64,000 nt of DNA from a virus (taxonomy: Duplodnaviria; Caudoviricetes). Made by a program: the position numbers and the translations under genes. The notes below the pieces were generated by a model. That model saw only the letters and a list, made by a program, of their open reading frames with translations. It did not search any database and was not told where the DNA came from. The stretch covers positions 31,513 to 95,512 of IMG/VR virus record IMGVR_UViG_3300020049_002596. One strand, written 5' to 3'. Within the stretch, counting starts at the first letter, position 1, and every line of letters starts with the position of its first letter. This document shows, one piece after another, positions 9,799 through 19,250 of this stretch.

Positions 9799-11256
9799 AT
9801 GGCTACATTAGGAAGCAAGCTTCTTGTTAAAGAGATGGAGTGGAATGCAAATATGACTGAGCAGTCTCACTTAGGGGCAGCTTTGATTGCAAAACCACAC
9901 CGTATCTTAGGAGAAATGGACAAGCTGTTCTCAGCACAAAACTATTATTCTGATAACCCAATGTCATCTTTATTGATGGGTAACTCTAAAACAGAGGAAA
10001 CTATTGGAAACACAGAATGGGAATGGGAATTAAAAGGTGCAAACACTAGACCTCTAGTTGTTGTAGAAAATGTTGAAGTTTCTTCAAACTTGACACCTGG
10101 AAAATTCAAAAAGACTTTCAAGATTAAACTTGATGAAAACTGGTACTTACCAGGAGATGTTATTATGCCAGGTACTTCTAACAAGAAATACCAAGTGCGT
10201 ATTCAAAACCAAGGTGTTAAGCATGGTGATGGTACAGTTTATACTGTAAGAATGAACTCAGATGACCCACAAGCATTTATGCCTGTGAAATATTTGAAGC
10301 CAGGACAACAATGGGGTAAATTATTCTCTCAATATGAGGAAGCTGCTGAGCAATCAGGTTCAACTGTATTCAGTTTACCAATTGCATTCAGAAACAGAAT
10401 GTCTAAATATAGAAAAGAATACAGAATTACTGACTATGCTTCAACTGAAGTTTTAGCTGTAGCTATCCCTGATTCAAAAGGTGCTTACCATAATTCATGG
10501 ATGCGTTATGCTGAAGTTGAATATTGGCAACAATGGTACAGAGAAGTAGAACGTGGATATTGGTATTCAAGATCTGCAGACACTGTATTAGGAGCTAATG
10601 GTAGACCAGTAAGAATGGGTCCTGGAATTCAAGAGCAATTAGAAGATTCTCATCAACACAGATATTCTCACTTAACTGCTAAGTTAATTGAAGAGTACTT
10701 ACAAGATATCTTCTATTCAAGAGTTAAGCCAGGTCAAGGTCGTCAAATTAAAGGTTTCACTGGAGAGTATGGTATGTTACAATTCCACAGAGCTATCCAA
10801 GATTGGCAAAACAAATCAGGTTTCATTAAGAACATTGAAGTATATACTAATAAAGTAGCTAGTTCAGTTCACACTAATGCACTTGAAGCAGGTTACCAAT
10901 TTGTGAAATACAACATGGCAAATGGTGCATCTCTTGAGTTAATTCACAATCCTCTTTATGATGATAGAGAAATTAACTTTGAAATTGATGAGGTTACAGG
11001 TTTCCCAATTGAGTCTCAAAGAATTACATTCTTAGATTTCTCAGGAGAATCTAAAAACTCTAACATCAAAATCATGAACAAGAAAGATGGTTTTGCCTTT
11101 ACTTATGTTGAAGGTATGTATGGTCCTTATGGTCCTAAAAATGGTGGTTCTTCTGCACACTCTGGTTCTTACTATGAAATGCACGTTGAAAAATCATGTG
11201 GTATCCATATCCATGACATCACTAAATGTGGTGAGTTGATCTTATCTCGTAACTAA
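9799..11256 (+). CDS. Major capsid protein (crAss-like, HK97 fold)
   Basis: 485 aa in the canonical position; EWEWEL, GPGIQEQLE, FTGEYGM, HNPLYDD motifs; distinct codon usage with CGT Arg codons; followed by a hairpin. Confidence 0.9.
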   Translation: MATLGSKLLVKEMEWNANMTEQSHLGAALIAKPHRILGEMDKLFSAQNYYSDNPMSSLLMGNSKTEETIGNTEWEWELKGANTRPLVVVENVEVSSNLTPGKFKKTFKIKLDENWYLPGDVIMPGTSNKKYQVRIQNQGVKHGDGTVYTVRMNSDDPQAFMPVKYLKPGQQWGKLFSQYEEAAEQSGSTVFSLPIAFRNRMSKYRKEYRITDYASTEVLAVAIPDSKGAYHNSWMRYAEVEYWQQWYREVERGYWYSRSADTVLGANGRPVRMGPGIQEQLEDSHQHRYSHLTAKLIEEYLQDIFYSRVKPGQGRQIKGFTGEYGMLQFHRAIQDWQNKSGFIKNIEVYTNKVASSVHTNALEAGYQFVKYNMANGASLELIHNPLYDDREINFEIDEVTGFPIESQRITFLDFSGESKNSNIKIMNKKDGFAFTYVEGMYGPYGPKNGGSSAHSGSYYEMHVEKSCGIHIHDITKCGELILSRN

Positions 11257-12893: not shown

Positions 12894-14114
12894 ATGAGTA
12901 ATCGTAACAATGACGTTTTTCAAGTATTACCTACAAAAGGTAATCAAGCTTTGGCTGCAACAGGGTCTACTGTAGATTCTTTATTGCCAGGGCAATTAGG
13001 AGTTTTTGATGCTAGCACAGGTTTAGCTTATGCTACTGCAGTACCTGCAGGAACTAAAGCAATTACTTTAGCTGTTGGTGTTGGTAATGGTTCTGTATTA
13101 ACAGATATCAGAACTTCTGCTGGTCAATTCATCCAGACTAAAGGTATTACAGATTTAACTTTTAAACCTCATACTGCAGGTAGACCTATGAAGGTTACTG
13201 TTGGAAGTTTTAAAGCTGAGTGTGATACTGAGTATGGAGTAAGAGTTGAATTCCGTAATGCAAAAATCAACAGAATCCAAGGATTTAACCAATTCAGCAA
13301 AGCTTATATGGTTACAACTCCTTGTTGTGATGATTGTGCAGGAGGATGTGGTTCTTTAGATGCTAACGTATTAACTCAGTTATTCGTAGCTAATATCAAT
13401 GCTGATGAGTCAGGTTTAGTTTTAGCTCAAGCTGTTGCAAGACAAGCTTTAGTTGCTGCTACTCATGGTACTGCTTCAGATTATGCTGCTGGAGATGTTC
13501 TTACTGATGCAGATGTTGCTGCTTTAGTAAACTTCAACTTGACTGCTGTAGATGCTGATAAAGTATTTGCTGACTTTCAATTAGTAAGTCAACCTTTAGC
13601 AATTGGAAACTACTGCTCTATCAACTTACATTACTACAAATTATTAGAAACAGTTTTAGTTGTTTCTTTAATTGAAGGTTTTGGATGTTCAGGAGCAACT
13701 ACCATCAATCAATACCCAGTATTTGAAGAAGGTAGTGGAGTTAATATCCAACAAAAAGAGTACCATGCTTCAGGATGGGCAGGTTCAGGACCTTACAAAT
13801 TGTCTCAAGTAACAGGTATGGGGTATGAAAATATCAACTATCTTTCTGTAAAAGGAACTACTTATGACCAATTTATTGTTCAGTATAACCAAACTTCTGA
13901 ATCAGGATGGCAAGAATACAGTAATGTACTAAGCACTGTAATTGCAATTCCAGAAGCTGACACAGTAACTAGACAAGCTGTTGCAACTATCTTTAATTCT
14001 TTCTTATCTTCTTTAGGATTTGAAAGCTTAATTGATGATGCTGCTGCTGCTAGTACTAATGCTGCAGTTGTAGAGCCAGAAGTTACTTCTGCTGCTACTG
14101 ATGGTATAGCATAA
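12894..14114 (+). CDS. Auxiliary capsid/decoration-type structural protein
   Basis: Ala/Gly/Thr-rich beta protein in the auxiliary-capsid position, followed by a strong terminator. Confidence 0.6.
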   Translation: MSNRNNDVFQVLPTKGNQALAATGSTVDSLLPGQLGVFDASTGLAYATAVPAGTKAITLAVGVGNGSVLTDIRTSAGQFIQTKGITDLTFKPHTAGRPMKVTVGSFKAECDTEYGVRVEFRNAKINRIQGFNQFSKAYMVTTPCCDDCAGGCGSLDANVLTQLFVANINADESGLVLAQAVARQALVAATHGTASDYAAGDVLTDADVAALVNFNLTAVDADKVFADFQLVSQPLAIGNYCSINLHYYKLLETVLVVSLIEGFGCSGATTINQYPVFEEGSGVNIQQKEYHASGWAGSGPYKLSQVTGMGYENINYLSVKGTTYDQFIVQYNQTSESGWQEYSNVLSTVIAIPEADTVTRQAVATIFNSFLSSLGFESLIDDAAAASTNAAVVEPEVTSAATDGIA

Positions 14115-14140
14115 GGAAACTTAAAATAAAGCTATTAGAT

Positions 14141-14174
14141 AAAACATCTCTATTTTTATAGAGATGTTTTTTTT
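14141..14174 (+). terminator. Rho-independent terminator
   Basis: AAAACATCTCTAT-tttt-ATAGAGATGTTTT followed by further Ts. Confidence 0.8.
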
Positions 14175-14180
14175 ATTTTG

Positions 14181-14188
14181 TATATTTG
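14181..14188 (+). promoter_or_regulatory. TAnnTTTG -7 element at the head of the mucin-like/GT/tail-fibre unit
   Basis: TATATTTG immediately after the terminator, 19 nt before ATG 14208. Confidence 0.6.
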
Positions 14189-14207
14189 ACACTTAAAACA
14201 CTTTCCC

Positions 14208-15431
14208 ATGGCCTTGAATTACACATACTTAAAATACAAAGATACATACACACTTGAAAATACAGGTACTGTGAATCTTACTTACCACATAAGTAAAGTA
14301 ACTTGTGAAGCAACTACAGAGATAAAAACAGCTGTAATGGTGCCTGGACAGATATCTACTTTAAGTTTTCCTGTGGATGGAAACTACTCTGTGTATTTAG
14401 AATCTAGTACTCAAGTAGGTATGCCTTTTGTCATTAAACATTATAATCATTTACTTACTTCTTTTATCAGCATGGTAGAAGGAATTGTATGTGGATGTAG
14501 TAAATGTGATGAATGTGAAGAGTGTAATAAATGTGAAGATTATCTTGGAACACTTTTAAAAGCTCAAGCTTTTAATACTTTAAACTATCCTGTATACCAA
14601 AACTATGTGAATCAGATTACTCAAGATTCTCTTTGTGTGTTCAGTGAGACTGTATTATGTAATTTATTACATGAAAAAGTGTATGGAAATGCAGAAGTAA
14701 AAGATGCTATGTTGAGACTAATTAGTTTCTACTATTTAGCTTTTTATTATCAAGACAAATTCTTAGCTGTAGATGCTGAAGAAAAAGCTTATGTTACAGA
14801 GAAGTACAAGTTTGATAAGATAGCAGCATGTATGAGAAAGTTAGGTATTATACCTACTGACCCTTTATTCATGACTACTACAACTACTACTCTTCCTATT
14901 ACAACAAGTACTACCACAGTTGCCCCTAGTAGCACAACAACTACTACAGTGCCACCAAGCAGTACTACAACAACTAGTAGTAGCACAACCACTACCACTA
15001 CTGCACCTACAAGTAGTACAAGTACAACAACTACTACAACACCTCCATGTGCTTTAGCAGGATATGCAGTAGAGACTACAGGTAGTACAACTACCTCAAC
15101 TAGTAGCACAACCACTGTACCAACAACAAGTACAACTAGCACTTCTACTACAAGTACAAGTACTAGCACAACTACAACCACTGCTCCTACTACTTCTACT
15201 AGTACAACAACAAGTACTACTAGTACTACTACAGAGCCTCCATTACCATGTCTTTCTTATACTCTAAGTGCACCTGGTGTTTCAGGTGAGTACAATGTAG
15301 CAGAATATATAGATTGTGGTGGATTACCCCAAGTTATAGAAGCTCATGGGTATGTTAATGCATCTTTTTGTGCAAGTAGCATAGTCTTTGGAGAAGGTAT
15401 GGTTATTAGTACAGGAGAGTGCAACGAATAG
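14208..15431 (+). CDS. Putative structural protein: Cys-rich N-terminal domain, ~120-aa mucin-like Thr/Ser/Pro tract, small Cys-containing C-terminal domain
   Basis: CGCSKCDECEECNKC; T/S/P tract at 14874-15233; located in the structural module. Confidence 0.7.
   Translation: MALNYTYLKYKDTYTLENTGTVNLTYHISKVTCEATTEIKTAVMVPGQISTLSFPVDGNYSVYLESSTQVGMPFVIKHYNHLLTSFISMVEGIVCGCSKCDECEECNKCEDYLGTLLKAQAFNTLNYPVYQNYVNQITQDSLCVFSETVLCNLLHEKVYGNAEVKDAMLRLISFYYLAFYYQDKFLAVDAEEKAYVTEKYKFDKIAACMRKLGIIPTDPLFMTTTTTTLPITTSTTTVAPSSTTTTTVPPSSTTTTSSSTTTTTTAPTSSTSTTTTTTPPCALAGYAVETTGSTTTSTSSTTTVPTTSTTSTSTTSTSTSTTTTTAPTTSTSTTTSTTSTTTEPPLPCLSYTLSAPGVSGEYNVAEYIDCGGLPQVIEAHGYVNASFCASSIVFGEGMVISTGECNE
14874..15233 (+). 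repeat. Low-complexity Thr/Ser-coding tract (mucin-like)
   Basis: Runs such as PSSTTTTT encoded by mixed ACT/ACA/ACC and AGT/AGC codons. Confidence 0.9.
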
Positions 15432-15817
15432 AAAAACTAGTAAAAGAGATTACTAGTTCTAAAAAAGATGTAGTATTTATAGGAAGTGTTTCTTTGTGGC
15501 ATTTAAACTTAGTGACTAATCCTCATGATATAGATATAGTTGTCAATAATTTAGATGGCTTAGAAGTTTTTGGAAATATAGAATCTTGGGAATCAAATTC
15601 TCCTATGAGTATAAGTAAAAAAAGAGCTTGTATTAAAAGAGAAGATTACACTATAGATATTTTTATTGAAGAAACTTTACCTGAACACAATATTGAAAAC
15701 AATATTAAGTTTCAAACTCTAGATAATTTAAAAGCTCATATTGAGTTAGTAATTGAATCTTCAGAAGGAAAACTTAAAGAAATAATGATTGAAAAAAAGA
15801 AACAGTATAAATTCTAA
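15419..15817 (+). CDS. Minimal nucleotidyltransferase (Pol-beta superfamily)
   Basis: VFIGSVSL (GS motif), PHDIDIVV (DxD) and third Asp in YTIDIF; GTG start is uncertain. Confidence 0.7.
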   Translation: MQRIEKLVKEITSSKKDVVFIGSVSLWHLNLVTNPHDIDIVVNNLDGLEVFGNIESWESNSPMSISKKRACIKREDYTIDIFIEETLPEHNIENNIKFQTLDNLKAHIELVIESSEGKLKEIMIEKKKQYKF

Positions 15818-15829
15818 AATCTACAAGAT

Positions 15830-16375
15830 ATGACAGTCTTAATAGCACTAACAACAGCAGGAACTTCAACAGGACCTTTTAATCTGTATTCTAATACAGA
15901 CAACTATGCAACTCCTTTTGAAACTAATGTACCTAAAGCAAGTTTAGTGGCAGGATATCTTAGTGTAGTGGTTCCAGCAGGAACTACCACAGTACAAGTA
16001 AGATCTTTAGGAACTTGTACCAATAGTATTAATATTCCTATTGATTTGTTAACTACAAGCACTAGCAGTACTAGTACAACAAGTACCACTACTACTACAG
16101 TGCCTACAACTACAACCACTACTGTAGCTCCTGCTACAAACTACAGATTTTACCGTTGTGGAGGAGATGGCATAGCTAGTGTAGTTGTAAGTGAAGCAGC
16201 TTTAATTAATGCAGGTATGGCACCAGGTGCTACTCTTACAGTTGCTAACACTATAGAAGTATCAGGTTCAGGTAATTTGACAAGCTGTTATGCTTTTGAT
16301 GATATGGTATCTCTTCCTGTGACAGGGCAAGCTGTAATAAGCTTTGACCAATGTGATTGTTTAATGCCAGCATAA
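15830..16375 (+). CDS. Small beta-domain protein with central mucin-like Thr/Ser linker and Cys-containing C-terminal domain
   Basis: TTSTSSTSTTSTTTTTVPTTTTTTVAPAT at about 16052-16138 between two compact domains. Confidence 0.7.
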   Translation: MTVLIALTTAGTSTGPFNLYSNTDNYATPFETNVPKASLVAGYLSVVVPAGTTTVQVRSLGTCTNSINIPIDLLTTSTSSTSTTSTTTTTVPTTTTTTVAPATNYRFYRCGGDGIASVVVSEAALINAGMAPGATLTVANTIEVSGSGNLTSCYAFDDMVSLPVTGQAVISFDQCDCLMPA

Positions 16376-16376
16376 T

Positions 16377-17303
16377 ATGAGGTATATATGTGCACAACCT
16401 GCTTCTAATTTCTACACATGGCAAGTAGAAGTGGTCATAAATAATTTTAAAAAACAGGGTGTCAATCCTAATAAAATTGACATCCTTTGTGCAATAAATG
16501 ATAATGTAGTTCCTGAAGAATGGAGAAAATTACAAAATCATTACAATACAGTTAGGTTCTTTTTTTACAATGATACTAGAGCAGATAAAAGTTACATACC
16601 TTCTATCTACTTTAATCTTATGAGTAGCCACATGAAAGCTAACCCAGACTTAATAGGTCAAAGGTTATTTTTACATGATAGTGATATAATTTTCACAAGG
16701 CCTCCAGAACTTAATTGGGCAATGTTAGGACAAGTTTGGTATCTAAGTGATACTAACTCTTACATCAATTATGATTACATACAACAAAAAGGTAATCATG
16801 TTTATGAAGATATGTGTAGCATTGTAGGTATAGATAAACTAATACCTAAATTAATGAACAGTCATTCAGGAGGTGCCCAGTATATTACTATTGGAGAATC
16901 TTCTGAGTTTTGGGATAAAGTGGAGAGTGATAGTGTCAAACTTTATTCTTACTTTTGTAAAACAGAACATCTGTATATTAAAAAACATGGAGGAGATTAT
17001 CCAATACAAAAATGGACAGCAGGAATGTGGTCCCTTCTTTGGAATATCTGGTTAAGAGGATATGAAACAAGAGTAGACTCTAGACTTGATTTTGGATGGA
17101 GTACTGATCATATTTCTTCAGTAGAAAAATATTGGATACTACACAATGCAGGTGTAGCTCCAACAGATTTAGGTTTATTCTTTAAAGGTAATTATACACA
17201 GGAGTTACCCTATAATAAAGAGTTAAATCTTAATGAACAAAGAGCCAGTTTCTATTATTGGAAAGAGGTGCAAGAAACAAGTAAACAAACAATACTAATA
17301 TAG
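16377..17303 (+). CDS. GT-A fold glycosyltransferase resembling peptidyl-serine galactosyltransferase / Hyp arabinosyltransferase (GT96/GT95-like)
   Basis: N-terminal FYTWQ, FLHDSDIIF (DxD at 16677-16685), GGAQY, KWTAGMWS and C-terminal ILHNAG. Confidence 0.65.
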   Translation: MRYICAQPASNFYTWQVEVVINNFKKQGVNPNKIDILCAINDNVVPEEWRKLQNHYNTVRFFFYNDTRADKSYIPSIYFNLMSSHMKANPDLIGQRLFLHDSDIIFTRPPELNWAMLGQVWYLSDTNSYINYDYIQQKGNHVYEDMCSIVGIDKLIPKLMNSHSGGAQYITIGESSEFWDKVESDSVKLYSYFCKTEHLYIKKHGGDYPIQKWTAGMWSLLWNIWLRGYETRVDSRLDFGWSTDHISSVEKYWILHNAGVAPTDLGLFFKGNYTQELPYNKELNLNEQRASFYYWKEVQETSKQTILI

Positions 17304-17316
17304 TAAGACTGAGACC

Positions 17317-17844
17317 ATGCAAGAATTACAAAAAATTAAGAGAGACATTGCTTGGCTTATTGAGCAAACTAAATGTCTTACCCAAGAGAGTAACTTAGAG
17401 TCTCCTTTGGTAGCTACTGAGTGGTCTCCTAATCATTCTGTAGGTACAGGTAATCCTTACATCTTAGATTGTTTTGTGTGGTATCAGGGTAATGTTTATA
17501 AGAGTCTTATGGATGATAATATTTATCCTCCTACTAATGACTGTTATTGGACAAATTTAGGTCCAGGACATTTACTATTAGAAGAGCAATCTGATTGGAA
17601 TGCTACTACTGGTAGACCTTTTATTAGAAACAAACCACTAATCATTAATGATAAAACTTATGTTCACAACCAAGTTGTAGCATCTAGTACTTGGTTAGTA
17701 ACACATAATCTAAACAAATATCCTTCAGTTTCTATAGTGGATTCTGGAGAAAACTTAGTTGTAGGAGATATACACTATATTGATTTAAACAATATTTTAA
17801 TTACCTTTACATCTACTTTTTCAGGGAAAGCATACTTTAACTAA
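17317..17844 (+). CDS. Tail-fibre-associated protein with CBM5/12-like aromatic module
   Basis: EWSP...VWYQGNVYKS...PP...YW module; C-terminal STWLVTHNLNKYPSVSIVD...FSGKAYFN domain typical of phage fibre proteins. Confidence 0.55.
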   Translation: MQELQKIKRDIAWLIEQTKCLTQESNLESPLVATEWSPNHSVGTGNPYILDCFVWYQGNVYKSLMDDNIYPPTNDCYWTNLGPGHLLLEEQSDWNATTGRPFIRNKPLIINDKTYVHNQVVASSTWLVTHNLNKYPSVSIVDSGENLVVGDIHYIDLNNILITFTSTFSGKAYFN

Positions 17845-17858
17845 AAAACAACACTATC

Positions 17859-19250
17859 ATGATTTATTTAAGTAATCTTAATCTAAGCAAGAACCAATTA
17901 CAGAATGCTGTAATTCATCCTTTAGGGACAGCACCAGCTAGTCCAGTAGAAGGGCAACTTTATTACAACTCTACTGCAGGAGTGAAAATGCTATATGTCT
18001 ATAATGGAACTGCTTGGGTACCTGTGGGAGACATAACAACTATCTCTTCTACAGAGTCTAGATTAATTGTAACTAATGGTACTACAGGAGATGTATCTTT
18101 ATCTTTAGACATTGCAACAGTAGTGGCTAATGGAGGTACAGGACTTGTTACTGCAGATTTATTGTATGACTATGTAGCTGGATTAGATGCTGTCTATTCT
18201 ATCACTGCAGGTCCTGGTATATCTATTACAGGTACAAGTACAGATCCTATTATTAACAATACTGATTTAGGTTCTTCTCAAGCTATCTTTAAAAATGTGG
18301 CAGTAGCAGGACAAACTACAGTTGTTGCAGATAGTAATAATGATACTCTTACAATAGCAGCAGGAGGTAATGTAACTATTACAACTAATGCTACTACAGA
18401 TACTGTTACCATCTCTTCAACAGATACTAATACTACTTATGATTTAGTTGCTGATGTAACTGCTGGAGGAGCTGTTATTCTTTTAAATGGTAGTGACTCA
18501 TCTCAAGATGCAGTAAAAATACTTGGTACTTCTAATGAGGTAGAAGTAACTAGATCAGGAAATGATATCACAGTAGGTTTACCAAACAATGTTGTAATTG
18601 CAGGTAACTTAACAGTTATTGGGACAACTACTACAAACAATGTAGAAACTGTATCTACATCTAATGGTGTTATTTTTGAAGGAAATGCTGCTGATGCTAA
18701 TGAGTTAACTTTGATAGCAGGTACTTTAACTGCTGATCAAACTATTACTTTACCAGATGCAACAGGTACAATAGCCTTATTGACTAACATTGGTAATGGT
18801 ACTCTTACTGTTACTGCAGGTACTTTAATGTCAGGTGGAGGTTCTTTTACAGCTAACCAAGCAGGTAACAGTTCTGTAACAATTAACCATGCTGCTGTAT
18901 CAAGAACAAATAATACTAGTTCTGCTTCTCCAGGAGTTGGAGGTAGTTTCACAGTTATTGACACTGTAACAACTTCAGCTGAAGGACACATCACAGCAGT
19001 TAATACTAAAACAGTTACTTTACCAGCTAATAGTGCTACTTCTTATGCTACTACAATTTCTGTATCAGGAACTATCACACATAGTTTAAGTACAAAAGAT
19101 GTCATAGTACAATTATATGACACAGTAACAAATGAAACAGTTTATGCTGATGTAGTGAGAGTAAATACAGCTCCTTACAATACAGTAACAGTTACTTTTG
19201 GAAATGCACCAGCAAATCCAATTAGAGTTTTAGTTTCTAAAATAGGATAA
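17859..19250 (+). CDS. Tail fibre protein
   Basis: APASPVEGQLYYN, Gly/Thr-rich beta repeats, TITLPDATGTIAL, C-terminal ITHSLSTKDVIVQLYD. Confidence 0.75.
   Translation: MIYLSNLNLSKNQLQNAVIHPLGTAPASPVEGQLYYNSTAGVKMLYVYNGTAWVPVGDITTISSTESRLIVTNGTTGDVSLSLDIATVVANGGTGLVTADLLYDYVAGLDAVYSITAGPGISITGTSTDPIINNTDLGSSQAIFKNVAVAGQTTVVADSNNDTLTIAAGGNVTITTNATTDTVTISSTDTNTTYDLVADVTAGGAVILLNGSDSSQDAVKILGTSNEVEVTRSGNDITVGLPNNVVIAGNLTVIGTTTTNNVETVSTSNGVIFEGNAADANELTLIAGTLTADQTITLPDATGTIALLTNIGNGTLTVTAGTLMSGGGSFTANQAGNSSVTINHAAVSRTNNTSSASPGVGGSFTVIDTVTTSAEGHITAVNTKTVTLPANSATSYATTISVSGTITHSLSTKDVIVQLYDTVTNETVYADVVRVNTAPYNTVTVTFGNAPANPIRVLVSKIG

Follow-up and report, generated by a model that had tools for sequence, protein, structure and literature searches.

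A GT-A-fold glycosyltransferase family linked to threonine/serine-tract proteins in a crAss-like phage and its relatives: a candidate system for O-glycosylation of phage particles

Gene content of the locus

The window analysed here, i.e., the whole stretch of 64,000 nucleotides, covers the right-hand 64 kb of an IMG/VR record of 95,512 bp (IMGVR_UViG_3300020049_002596), which is rated 100% complete. The source is a crAss-like phage, as judged from the match of the major capsid gene (9799-11256) to PF23898 (E 1e-161). No near-identical DNA was found in the phage collection. The subject of this report is a block of four open reading frames (ORFs A to D; window positions 14208-17303) located between this capsid gene and the tail-fibre genes, which begin at position 17859. 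All four ORFs lie on the plus strand and are tightly packed. ORF D encodes a predicted glycosyltransferase (GT), while the products of ORFs A and C carry long tracts rich in threonine and serine. The linkage between such enzymes and such tracts suggests that the phage O-glycosylates its own structural proteins.

A preliminary description, prepared from the letters of this DNA alone, had listed four contiguous, co-oriented genes following a terminator and a TAnnTTTG element between the capsid and tail-fibre genes. This arrangement was confirmed and the coordinates were exact. Long Thr/Ser/Pro tracts beside small Cys-containing domains had been recognized in two of the genes, a DxD-containing GT-A enzyme in another, and a minimal GS..DxD nucleotidyltransferase in the remaining one (ORF B, treated further below); signal peptides had not been seen. 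These assignments agree with the residue positions, motifs, and structural models given in the following sections. The features that are central to the interpretation are:

14208-15431, plus strand: ORF A, 407 amino acids, with two Thr/Ser/Pro tracts
14208-14870, plus strand: N-terminal domain of ORF A (residues 1-221), phrog_15330; the gene is conserved in this crAss lineage
14871-15245, plus strand: Thr/Ser/Pro tracts of ORF A (residues 222-282 and 287-346), proposed O-glycan acceptor stalk
15246-15431, plus strand: C-terminal domain of ORF A, about 60 amino acids (residues 347-407, plus the stop codon), with Cys at 348, 370, 388, and 405; varies between relatives
15830-16375, plus strand: ORF C, 181 amino acids, second proposed acceptor protein; a 70-residue N-terminal domain, a tract, and a variable C-terminal domain with four Cys
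16040-16129, plus strand: Thr/Ser tract of ORF C (residues 71-100)
16377-17303, plus strand: ORF D, 308 amino acids, predicted soluble GT-A-fold glycosyltransferase, phrog_4417; D101-S-D103 at 16677-16685, H256 at 17142-17144

Tract-bearing proteins encoded by ORFs A and C

Tracts were defined as segments in which at least 12 of 15 residues are serine or threonine. ORFs A and C are the only tract-bearing ORFs in the whole 95,512-bp genome, a result far from chance. The protein encoded by ORF A contains 21.9% threonine and 15 cysteines. In both genes, the tracts are encoded by imperfect DNA repeats with mixed ACT and ACA codons. These features rule out an origin of the tracts as DNA microsatellites; selection therefore acts on the protein.

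The N-terminal domain of ORF A probably anchors the protein in the virion, and the C-terminal domain would be positioned at the distal end of the stalk. An ESM Atlas search with the N-terminal domain gave no usable match. Residues 95-109 of this conserved domain (window 14490-14534) form a CxCxxCxxCxxCxxC cluster with six cysteines, GCSKCDECEECNKCE. The cluster matched no known family and may represent a metal-binding site or a disulfide knot. The family to which the N-terminal domain of ORF C belongs was found only in those crAss-like relatives that carry the GT; in other viral contigs, its members are encoded just 5' of the GT gene.

Family, fold, and motifs of ORF D

ORF D belongs to phrog_4417 (E 2e-68). 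The family is large, with 1,824 clusters at 90% identity and 810 representatives at 50% identity, and its members, where named by a source, are annotated as 'hypothetical protein'. No match to ORF D was obtained in Pfam (E up to 0.1), NCBIfam, or PADLOC. Searches against PDB sequences, performed with the single protein and with a profile, returned chance matches only. Neither a signal peptide nor a membrane segment was seen by direct reading of the protein sequence.

The AlphaFold2 model of ORF D, built from a 47-sequence alignment, reached a pLDDT of 96.8. It forms one Rossmann-like alpha/beta/alpha domain, most of which can be matched to solved GT-A enzymes. Its comparison with 48,161 PDB representatives using VIA-align yielded 89 chains at Z of at least 8, and the top 30 of these were nearly all GT-A transferases. 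The best fold match was LgtC (Z 15.2; 232 residues aligned, root-mean-square deviation 3.5). Further matches included Skp1 alpha-galactosyltransferase (Z 14.9), WbbM and glycogenin (both 14.6), UGGT (14.5), a GT8 protein (14.0), LARGE1 (13.9), GlyE (13.8), and A64R of PBCV-1 (11.3). A Foldseek search (311 matches at E up to 1e-3) agreed with VIA-align, with modest TM-scores of 0.41-0.52.

The D101-S-D103 motif is located directly after the strand formed by residues 96-100 of the model. Residue conservation was assessed in 47 homologues and then in 71 more diverse ones: D103, H256, and K270 were invariant, and D101 was at least 90% conserved. GT8 enzymes have a DxD motif after a central strand and a late conserved histidine at their metal site, to which D101-S-D103 and H256 may correspond. 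With high confidence for the fold, ORF D is predicted to be a GT-A glycosyltransferase, nearest to the retaining GT8 type, and sugar transfer is its predicted activity. A complex prediction of D with residues 55-115 of ORF C, which include the tract, gave a score of 0.01 (mark 0.32) and is evidence neither way.

D-type domains also occur fused to GT6, GT2, GT32-like, methyltransferase, and radical-SAM/SPASM domains (P0122, P0139, P0145, P0165, P0214, P0007, and P0150). These fusions fit the company expected of a glycan-initiating enzyme, and they indicate that some phages may build longer or methylated glycans on the same kind of tract. Besides D, the genome scan revealed no other recognisable GT8, GT2, or sugar-nucleotidyltransferase gene. 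The sugar donor would therefore come from the host.

The fold comparison bears on the type of reaction as well. D could act on the tracts by transferring a sugar-1-phosphate, in the style of Stealth enzymes and GlcNAc-1-phosphotransferase, or it could elongate a sugar primed by the host. Both GlcNAc-1-phosphotransferase and CpsY-type Stealth enzymes are among the fold matches of D (Z 9.6-10.0), and GlyE and other GT8 enzymes involved in glycosylation of serine-rich-repeat proteins elongate glycans rather than initiate them. However, the GT8-type sugar transferases, at Z 14-15, score clearly above the phosphotransferases at Z of about 10. In addition, D is the sole GT-like gene detected in the genome, and no cytoplasmic host enzyme is known to prime poly-Thr. 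The occurrence of a single such gene beside a tract-bearing protein in many small phages argues that D initiates the glycan. A phosphotransferase or elongating role of D is, in our assessment, quite unlikely.

Linkage of the enzyme and tract genes in viral contigs and cultured phages

The gene neighbourhood of D was examined in a sample of 80 IMG/VR contigs encoding D homologues with 42-81% identity, two of which were crAss-like, by means of a six-frame tract search. A tract ORF on the same strand ended within 150 nt 5' of the GT gene in 53 of the 75 evaluable loci and within 3 kb in 63 of them; these counts include related contigs and do not represent fully independent events. By comparison, a tract ORF within 3 kb downstream of the GT gene was present in 2 of 73 loci. 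The number of tract residues per kb was 25.2 in the 2.5 kb upstream of the GT, 6.4 in the next 2.5 kb, and 0.6-0.9 downstream. When the GTs were clustered at 80% identity, adjacency was kept in 32 of 47 clusters. A looser criterion revealed short poly-Thr runs in three more loci.

After masking of the tracts, the carrier proteins fell into at least 18 groups that were not linked by BLAST. Some of the carriers possess major-tail-protein (phrog_1407) or virion-structural (phrog_14478) domains. The usual layout of a carrier comprises an anchoring domain followed by the tract and then by one or more small Cys-containing domains.

Homologues of D were also detected by tblastn in 77 GenBank phage records. 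In each of the 11 records that were opened, poly-Thr was encoded in the gene just upstream of the D homologue. Namely, the major tail protein of Enterococcus phage phiFL1A ends with ...GTTTTTSTTTTTTSSTTTTTTTQASSK, and poly-Thr C-termini are present in gp18 of phiCTP1, in the major tail proteins of SA2 and TPWB06, and in orf13 ('major structural protein') of Lactococcus phage 1706. The major capsid protein of Enterococcus phage 4995_1 has a poly-Thr end; in Lacticaseibacillus phage R3.3, such ends are found on both the capsid-position and the tail-tube-position proteins. Enterococcus phage Planchet has an unannotated poly-Thr frame between the capsid gene and the GT gene. Fibre-like tract proteins are encoded upstream of the GT in Lactobacillus phage Iacchus and Chryseobacterium phage MA9V-3. 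The phages in which the upstream gene is a capsid or tail-tube gene with a poly-Thr end include phages of Enterococcus, Staphylococcus, Lactococcus, Clostridium, and Lacticaseibacillus.

Some of these tails are encoded in an unusual manner. The major tail protein of Staphylococcus phage SA2 and that of Arcanobacterium phage TPWB06 end with a Thr run, and a short overlapping ORF in another frame continues with a much longer poly-Thr tract. The poly-Thr frame of Planchet follows the capsid stop codon. The frames in SA2, TPWB06, and Planchet (L085:5117-5930, L098:3164-3926, and L096:3772-3890) look like cases of programmed frameshifting, through which a small share of the subunits would receive a long glycan-acceptor tail.

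Joint presence and absence in crAss-like relatives

A total of 58 crAss-like relatives were retrieved via the gene at 12894-14114, which is located upstream of the block, and the 29 relatives with at least 5 kb of downstream sequence were evaluated. Tract ORFs were present in all 8 relatives with D and in none of the 21 relatives without D (Fisher p 2.3e-7). In the 8 D-carrying relatives, one to three tract ORFs are located between the gene at 12894-14114 and D. At comparable identity to the query (60-93%), relatives that carry D alternate with relatives that lack it, which makes repeated gain or loss likely. The co-occurrence of GT homologues with Thr-rich ORFs, which was to be expected from the preliminary description, is thus seen both in these relatives and in the contig sample, with its 53 adjoining pairs in 75 loci.

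An orthologue of ORF A follows the gene at 12894-14114 in 27 of the 29 relatives, whether or not the GT is present. In relatives without D, this orthologue either stops at 222-236 residues or runs into a 120-residue domain with a serine plus threonine content of 13-17%. In relatives with D, it runs into tracts and a variable Cys-containing domain. C-type genes were found only in D-carrying relatives. Each relative has its own tract lengths and distal domains. Between the window and the relative L004, the capsid protein is 98% identical, D is 81% identical, and the N-terminal domain of ORF A is 52% identical. Judging from the comparison of the window with L004 and L101, the module diverges much faster than its surroundings, a pattern typical of surface parts under diversifying selection.

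These data also bear on the target of the enzyme. D might glycosylate phage DNA or a polymer of the host envelope, such as lipopolysaccharide (LPS), teichoic acid, or capsule, and so serve superinfection exclusion or receptor masking; the adjacency to tract genes would then be a matter of gene order. LgtC and WbbM, which are of the GT8 type, build LPS or O-antigen, and the GT gene of Iacchus adjoins recA and sigma-factor genes outside the classic head-tail block. Phage GT-A enzymes that glycosylate DNA exist as well; these are JGT/TarP-like, are encoded beside 5mYOX or ThyS genes, and possess R..DDD..EDY/F motifs (10.1101/2023.12.21.572611). D, however, carries the DxD motif and His instead of the latter motifs, and a search of the complete genome revealed no gene of the Tet/JBP or thymidylate-synthase type that could supply a DNA acceptor. 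It is a soluble protein encoded in virulent phages among late genes. Moreover, another target would leave unexplained why tracts occur only together with D in the crAss-like relatives (8/8 versus 0/21) and why a tract gene is the near-constant immediate upstream neighbour of the GT. We give DNA or envelope polymers as the target of D little credence.

Finally, the tracts might be plain flexible linkers and D a passenger, both inherited together in a mobile cassette of common ancestry. Secreted proteins of Bacteroidota and other bacteria often have Thr/Ser/Pro linkers between their domains, and many of the 80 contig loci belong to related aquatic phages. However, the carriers represent at least 18 unrelated families, which include capsid, tail-tube, and fibre-like proteins from phages of at least two phyla of hosts (Bacillota and Bacteroidota), and these carriers share only the tract and the enzyme. 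The tracts in Bacillota phages are terminal tails that link nothing, so that a role as just a linker fails to explain them. Also, joint gain and loss is strict in close relatives. The linker explanation appears highly improbable.

Proposed mechanism

According to the mechanism proposed here, D would be a soluble, metal-dependent GT-A enzyme, which uses a nucleotide sugar supplied by the host in late infection. Its substrates would be the Thr/Ser tracts of A and C, structural proteins of the same phage, which would receive O-linked sugars in the cytoplasm ahead of particle assembly or in its course. The product would be mucin-like glycosylated stalks on the particle, each with a small distal Cys-containing domain. 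Moving together with the enzyme gene, the tract would serve as a portable tag that marks acceptors; in other phages, this tag is fused to the C-termini of capsid and tail-tube proteins. The likely benefit would be shielding from proteases or antibodies, hydration, or adhesion.

Since enzyme and tracts appear and vanish together in relatives, the phage probably sugar-coats its own particle proteins. The basis of this interpretation is the fold of D, its conserved DxD and His residues, the one-sided placement of tract genes beside the GT gene, and the parallel gain and loss of enzyme and tracts. From these we infer catalysis by D, the sugar and its acceptor residue, the presence of A and C in the virion, and the benefit. 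We assign a probability of roughly 70% to the reading that the phage uses D to O-glycosylate its own tract-bearing structural proteins in the cytoplasm. The preliminary description had likewise proposed a phage GT that modifies the mucin-like proteins of the same phage in the cytoplasm; its candidate roles for the glycans were shielding, protease resistance, adhesion, and baiting of glycan-binding systems of a Bacteroidota host. This core is sustained by the fold, the synteny in 80 loci, the poly-Thr tails, and the 29 relatives; the nucleotidyltransferase, which had been counted as part of the system, is not a conserved partner.

Several points weigh against O-glycosylation of the tracts by D. 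There is no sequence-level match between the D family and any characterised GT, so that fold and motifs are the sole basis for the predicted activity. For A and C, a place in the virion is deduced from gene position and from relatives. About 8 of the 75 evaluable contig loci have no tract near the GT, and the relatedness of contigs lessens the independence of the linkage counts. One contig fragment (L087, 31 kb) contains no D homologue despite the presence of four tract ORFs; here, either the GT is encoded in the 73% of the genome that the fragment lacks or the tracts depend on another enzyme. Our literature search revealed no report of a glycan on any phage with a D-family enzyme and no description of the D family or of poly-Thr tails on phage proteins. 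Glycan staining of ten phages detected no glycoprotein (PMC12894461); whether any of the ten carries a D homologue was left unchecked.

Comparison with known glycosylation systems

O-glycosylation of virions has been described for mycobacteriophages (Che8 gp108-110, Corndog, and Myrna; Freeman et al., 2023, as cited in PMC12363180 and PMC12619734). According to PMC12363180, these phages are the sole experimental case of virion glycosylation, and antibody recognition is blunted by it. Phage-encoded GTs are reported to act in the cytoplasm on virion proteins of the same phage, the acceptors being extensions at the C-termini of capsid and tail-tube subunits. Firmicutes phages with D homologues show this layout as well, in that annotated capsid and tail-tube proteins carry poly-Thr extensions and are encoded next to the GT gene. 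For ORFs A and C of the window, this likeness is drawn only from their position in the structural block.

The enzymes of Che8 differ from D: gp108 combines GT2 and methyltransferase domains, gp109 is GT2-like, and gp110 belongs to GT25. The hhalign comparison of the D family with gp110 gave a probability of 0.1%. There are no Mycobacterium phages among the 77 GenBank records with a D homologue. The putative acceptors of the D family are long, near-pure Thr/Ser tracts encoded directly 5' of the GT, whereas the GT genes of Che8 are located at the far right end of the genome.

The best whole-protein structural matches of D (Z 13.8-15.2) are GT8-type enzymes, i.e., LgtC, glycogenin, the Skp1 enzyme, and GlyE. 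Three of these, glycogenin, the Skp1 enzyme, and GlyE (which acts on pneumococcal PsrP), modify proteins in the cytoplasm, as is proposed for D. GlyE extends a glycan that GtfA/B has primed; a comparable primer enzyme was not seen in this phage. The Pfam profile of GT8, PF01501, had no match in the genome at E up to 10, and control genomes were matched.

The plant and algal enzymes HPAT (GT95, PF23452) and SGT1 (peptidyl-serine alpha-galactosyltransferase, GT96) start glycosylation by adding a sugar to hydroxyl residues of extended, repeat-rich proteins, which is also the proposed role of D. The plant enzymes are Golgi membrane proteins, whereas D is soluble. The preliminary description had suggested a kinship to GT95 and GT96 from the order of motifs. 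For GT95, a weak echo was seen in homologues: PF23452 matched 2 of 47 homologues (best E 1.3e-4) and 1 of the 71 more diverse homologues at E up to 0.01, and one ESM Atlas neighbour cluster had HPAT on 10% of its members. The window protein itself showed no match to PF23452, and its best solved folds are of the GT8 type. A genome search with PF23452 matched neither the phage genome nor any control genome and therefore says nothing.

A further likeness exists to the chlorovirus PBCV-1, a eukaryotic virus whose own cytoplasmic GT-A enzymes glycosylate its major capsid protein. The fold match of D to A64R (Z 11.3) is weaker than those to GT8 enzymes, and a poly-Thr tag is not involved in PBCV-1. 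The glycans of this virus are N-linked and are built on Asn of the capsid protein.

ORF B and the flanking regions

The remaining gene of the block and the features preceding it are:

15419-15817, plus strand: ORF B, 132 amino acids, minimal Pol-beta-type nucleotidyltransferase, with G22-S23, D37-I-D39, and D80
14141-14170, plus strand: intrinsic terminator with a 13-bp stem, a 4-nt loop, and a T run; closes the preceding capsid-proximal genes
14181-14188, plus strand: TATATTTG, candidate Bacteroidota-type -7 promoter element, 20 nt 5' of the start codon of ORF A

The G22-S23, D37xD39, and D80 residues of ORF B are invariant in 20 aligned sequences. The model of this protein (pLDDT 92.9) matched the folds of TM1012 (Z 12.1), ANT(2'') (10.4), LnuA (9.3), and MenT1 (8.8); FKRP scored only 5.8. 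Motifs, model, and fold thus agree on a minimal nucleotidyltransferase. In L087, four consecutive tract ORFs (L087:1177-5992) are followed by an ORF B homologue.

ORF B could be a working part of the system, nucleotidylylating or otherwise decorating the glycan. It lies inside the module in the window, L017, L088, and L089, and in six of nine loci with an ORF B homologue it directly follows an ORF that ends in an ORF A-type C-terminal domain. The nearest characterised folds, ANT(2'') and LnuA, are those of enzymes that adenylylate sugar hydroxyls. However, ORF B was present in only 1 of 80 GT loci and in 2 of the 8 GT-carrying crAss-like relatives, being missing from the other 79 and 6, respectively, and it is absent from the close relative L004 (98% capsid identity). 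A GT gene within 6 kb was found in only two of the nine loci, which are the near-identical pair L088/L089, and was lacking in the other seven. The five parent contigs of ORF B loci that were searched over their whole length, 9-65% complete, contained no D. The ORF B family is small (26 proteins), and its fold also resembles toxins of the MenT/AbiEii type, so that other roles are equally open. We consider a function of ORF B in glycan decoration unlikely; this is a lineage-specific accessory gene, probably outside the mechanism. Its inclusion in the glycosylation system by the preliminary description was not upheld by these distributions.

The bare TAnnTTTG motif occurs 90 times in the window versus 91 expected occurrences. 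As evidence by itself, the motif was dropped because of this chance frequency. The terminator is nearly invariant in five relatives, with the GT present or absent. The intergenic region at 14115-14207, which includes the terminator and the promoter-like element, is almost base-for-base the same in relatives, while the flanking proteins are 64-88% identical. The position and strict conservation of TATATTTG at 14181-14188 suggest that it acts as a promoter. The pattern points to 14115-14207 as a strongly constrained regulatory element at the beginning of this late transcription unit.

Directly 3' of D, a 175-residue ORF (17317-17844) encodes a C-terminal domain of about 65 residues that is common to several PHROG families of unknown function and to one 'virion structural protein' family. 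The N-terminal part of this ORF is kept beside the module in relatives with and without D.

Implications

The proposed cytoplasmic O-glycosylation of virion proteins is well supported by comparison across genomes. We consider it fairly probable that poly-Thr is a portable 'glycosylate me' tag, which is read by a dedicated, so far unannotated phage GT family, phrog_4417. If so, virion O-glycosylation would have arisen a second time, independently of mycobacteriophages. Several cultured phages carry the enzyme-tag pair, which makes the claim directly testable.

In this case, phages of Bacillota and Bacteroidota and those of aquatic viromes would commonly have sugar-coated particles. The coats would extend to phages that infect enterococci, staphylococci, lactobacilli, and clostridia, as well as to abundant crAss-like and aquatic phages. 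This would bear on phage therapy, with regard to immune clearance and stability, on the biology of dairy phages, and on the sticking of phages to mucus or to polysaccharide-rich particles. The enzyme together with a short poly-Thr tag could also offer a simple way to O-glycosylate recombinant proteins in the cytoplasm. The crAss-like phages, in turn, would have expanded the tag into mucin-like stalks on fibre-type proteins.

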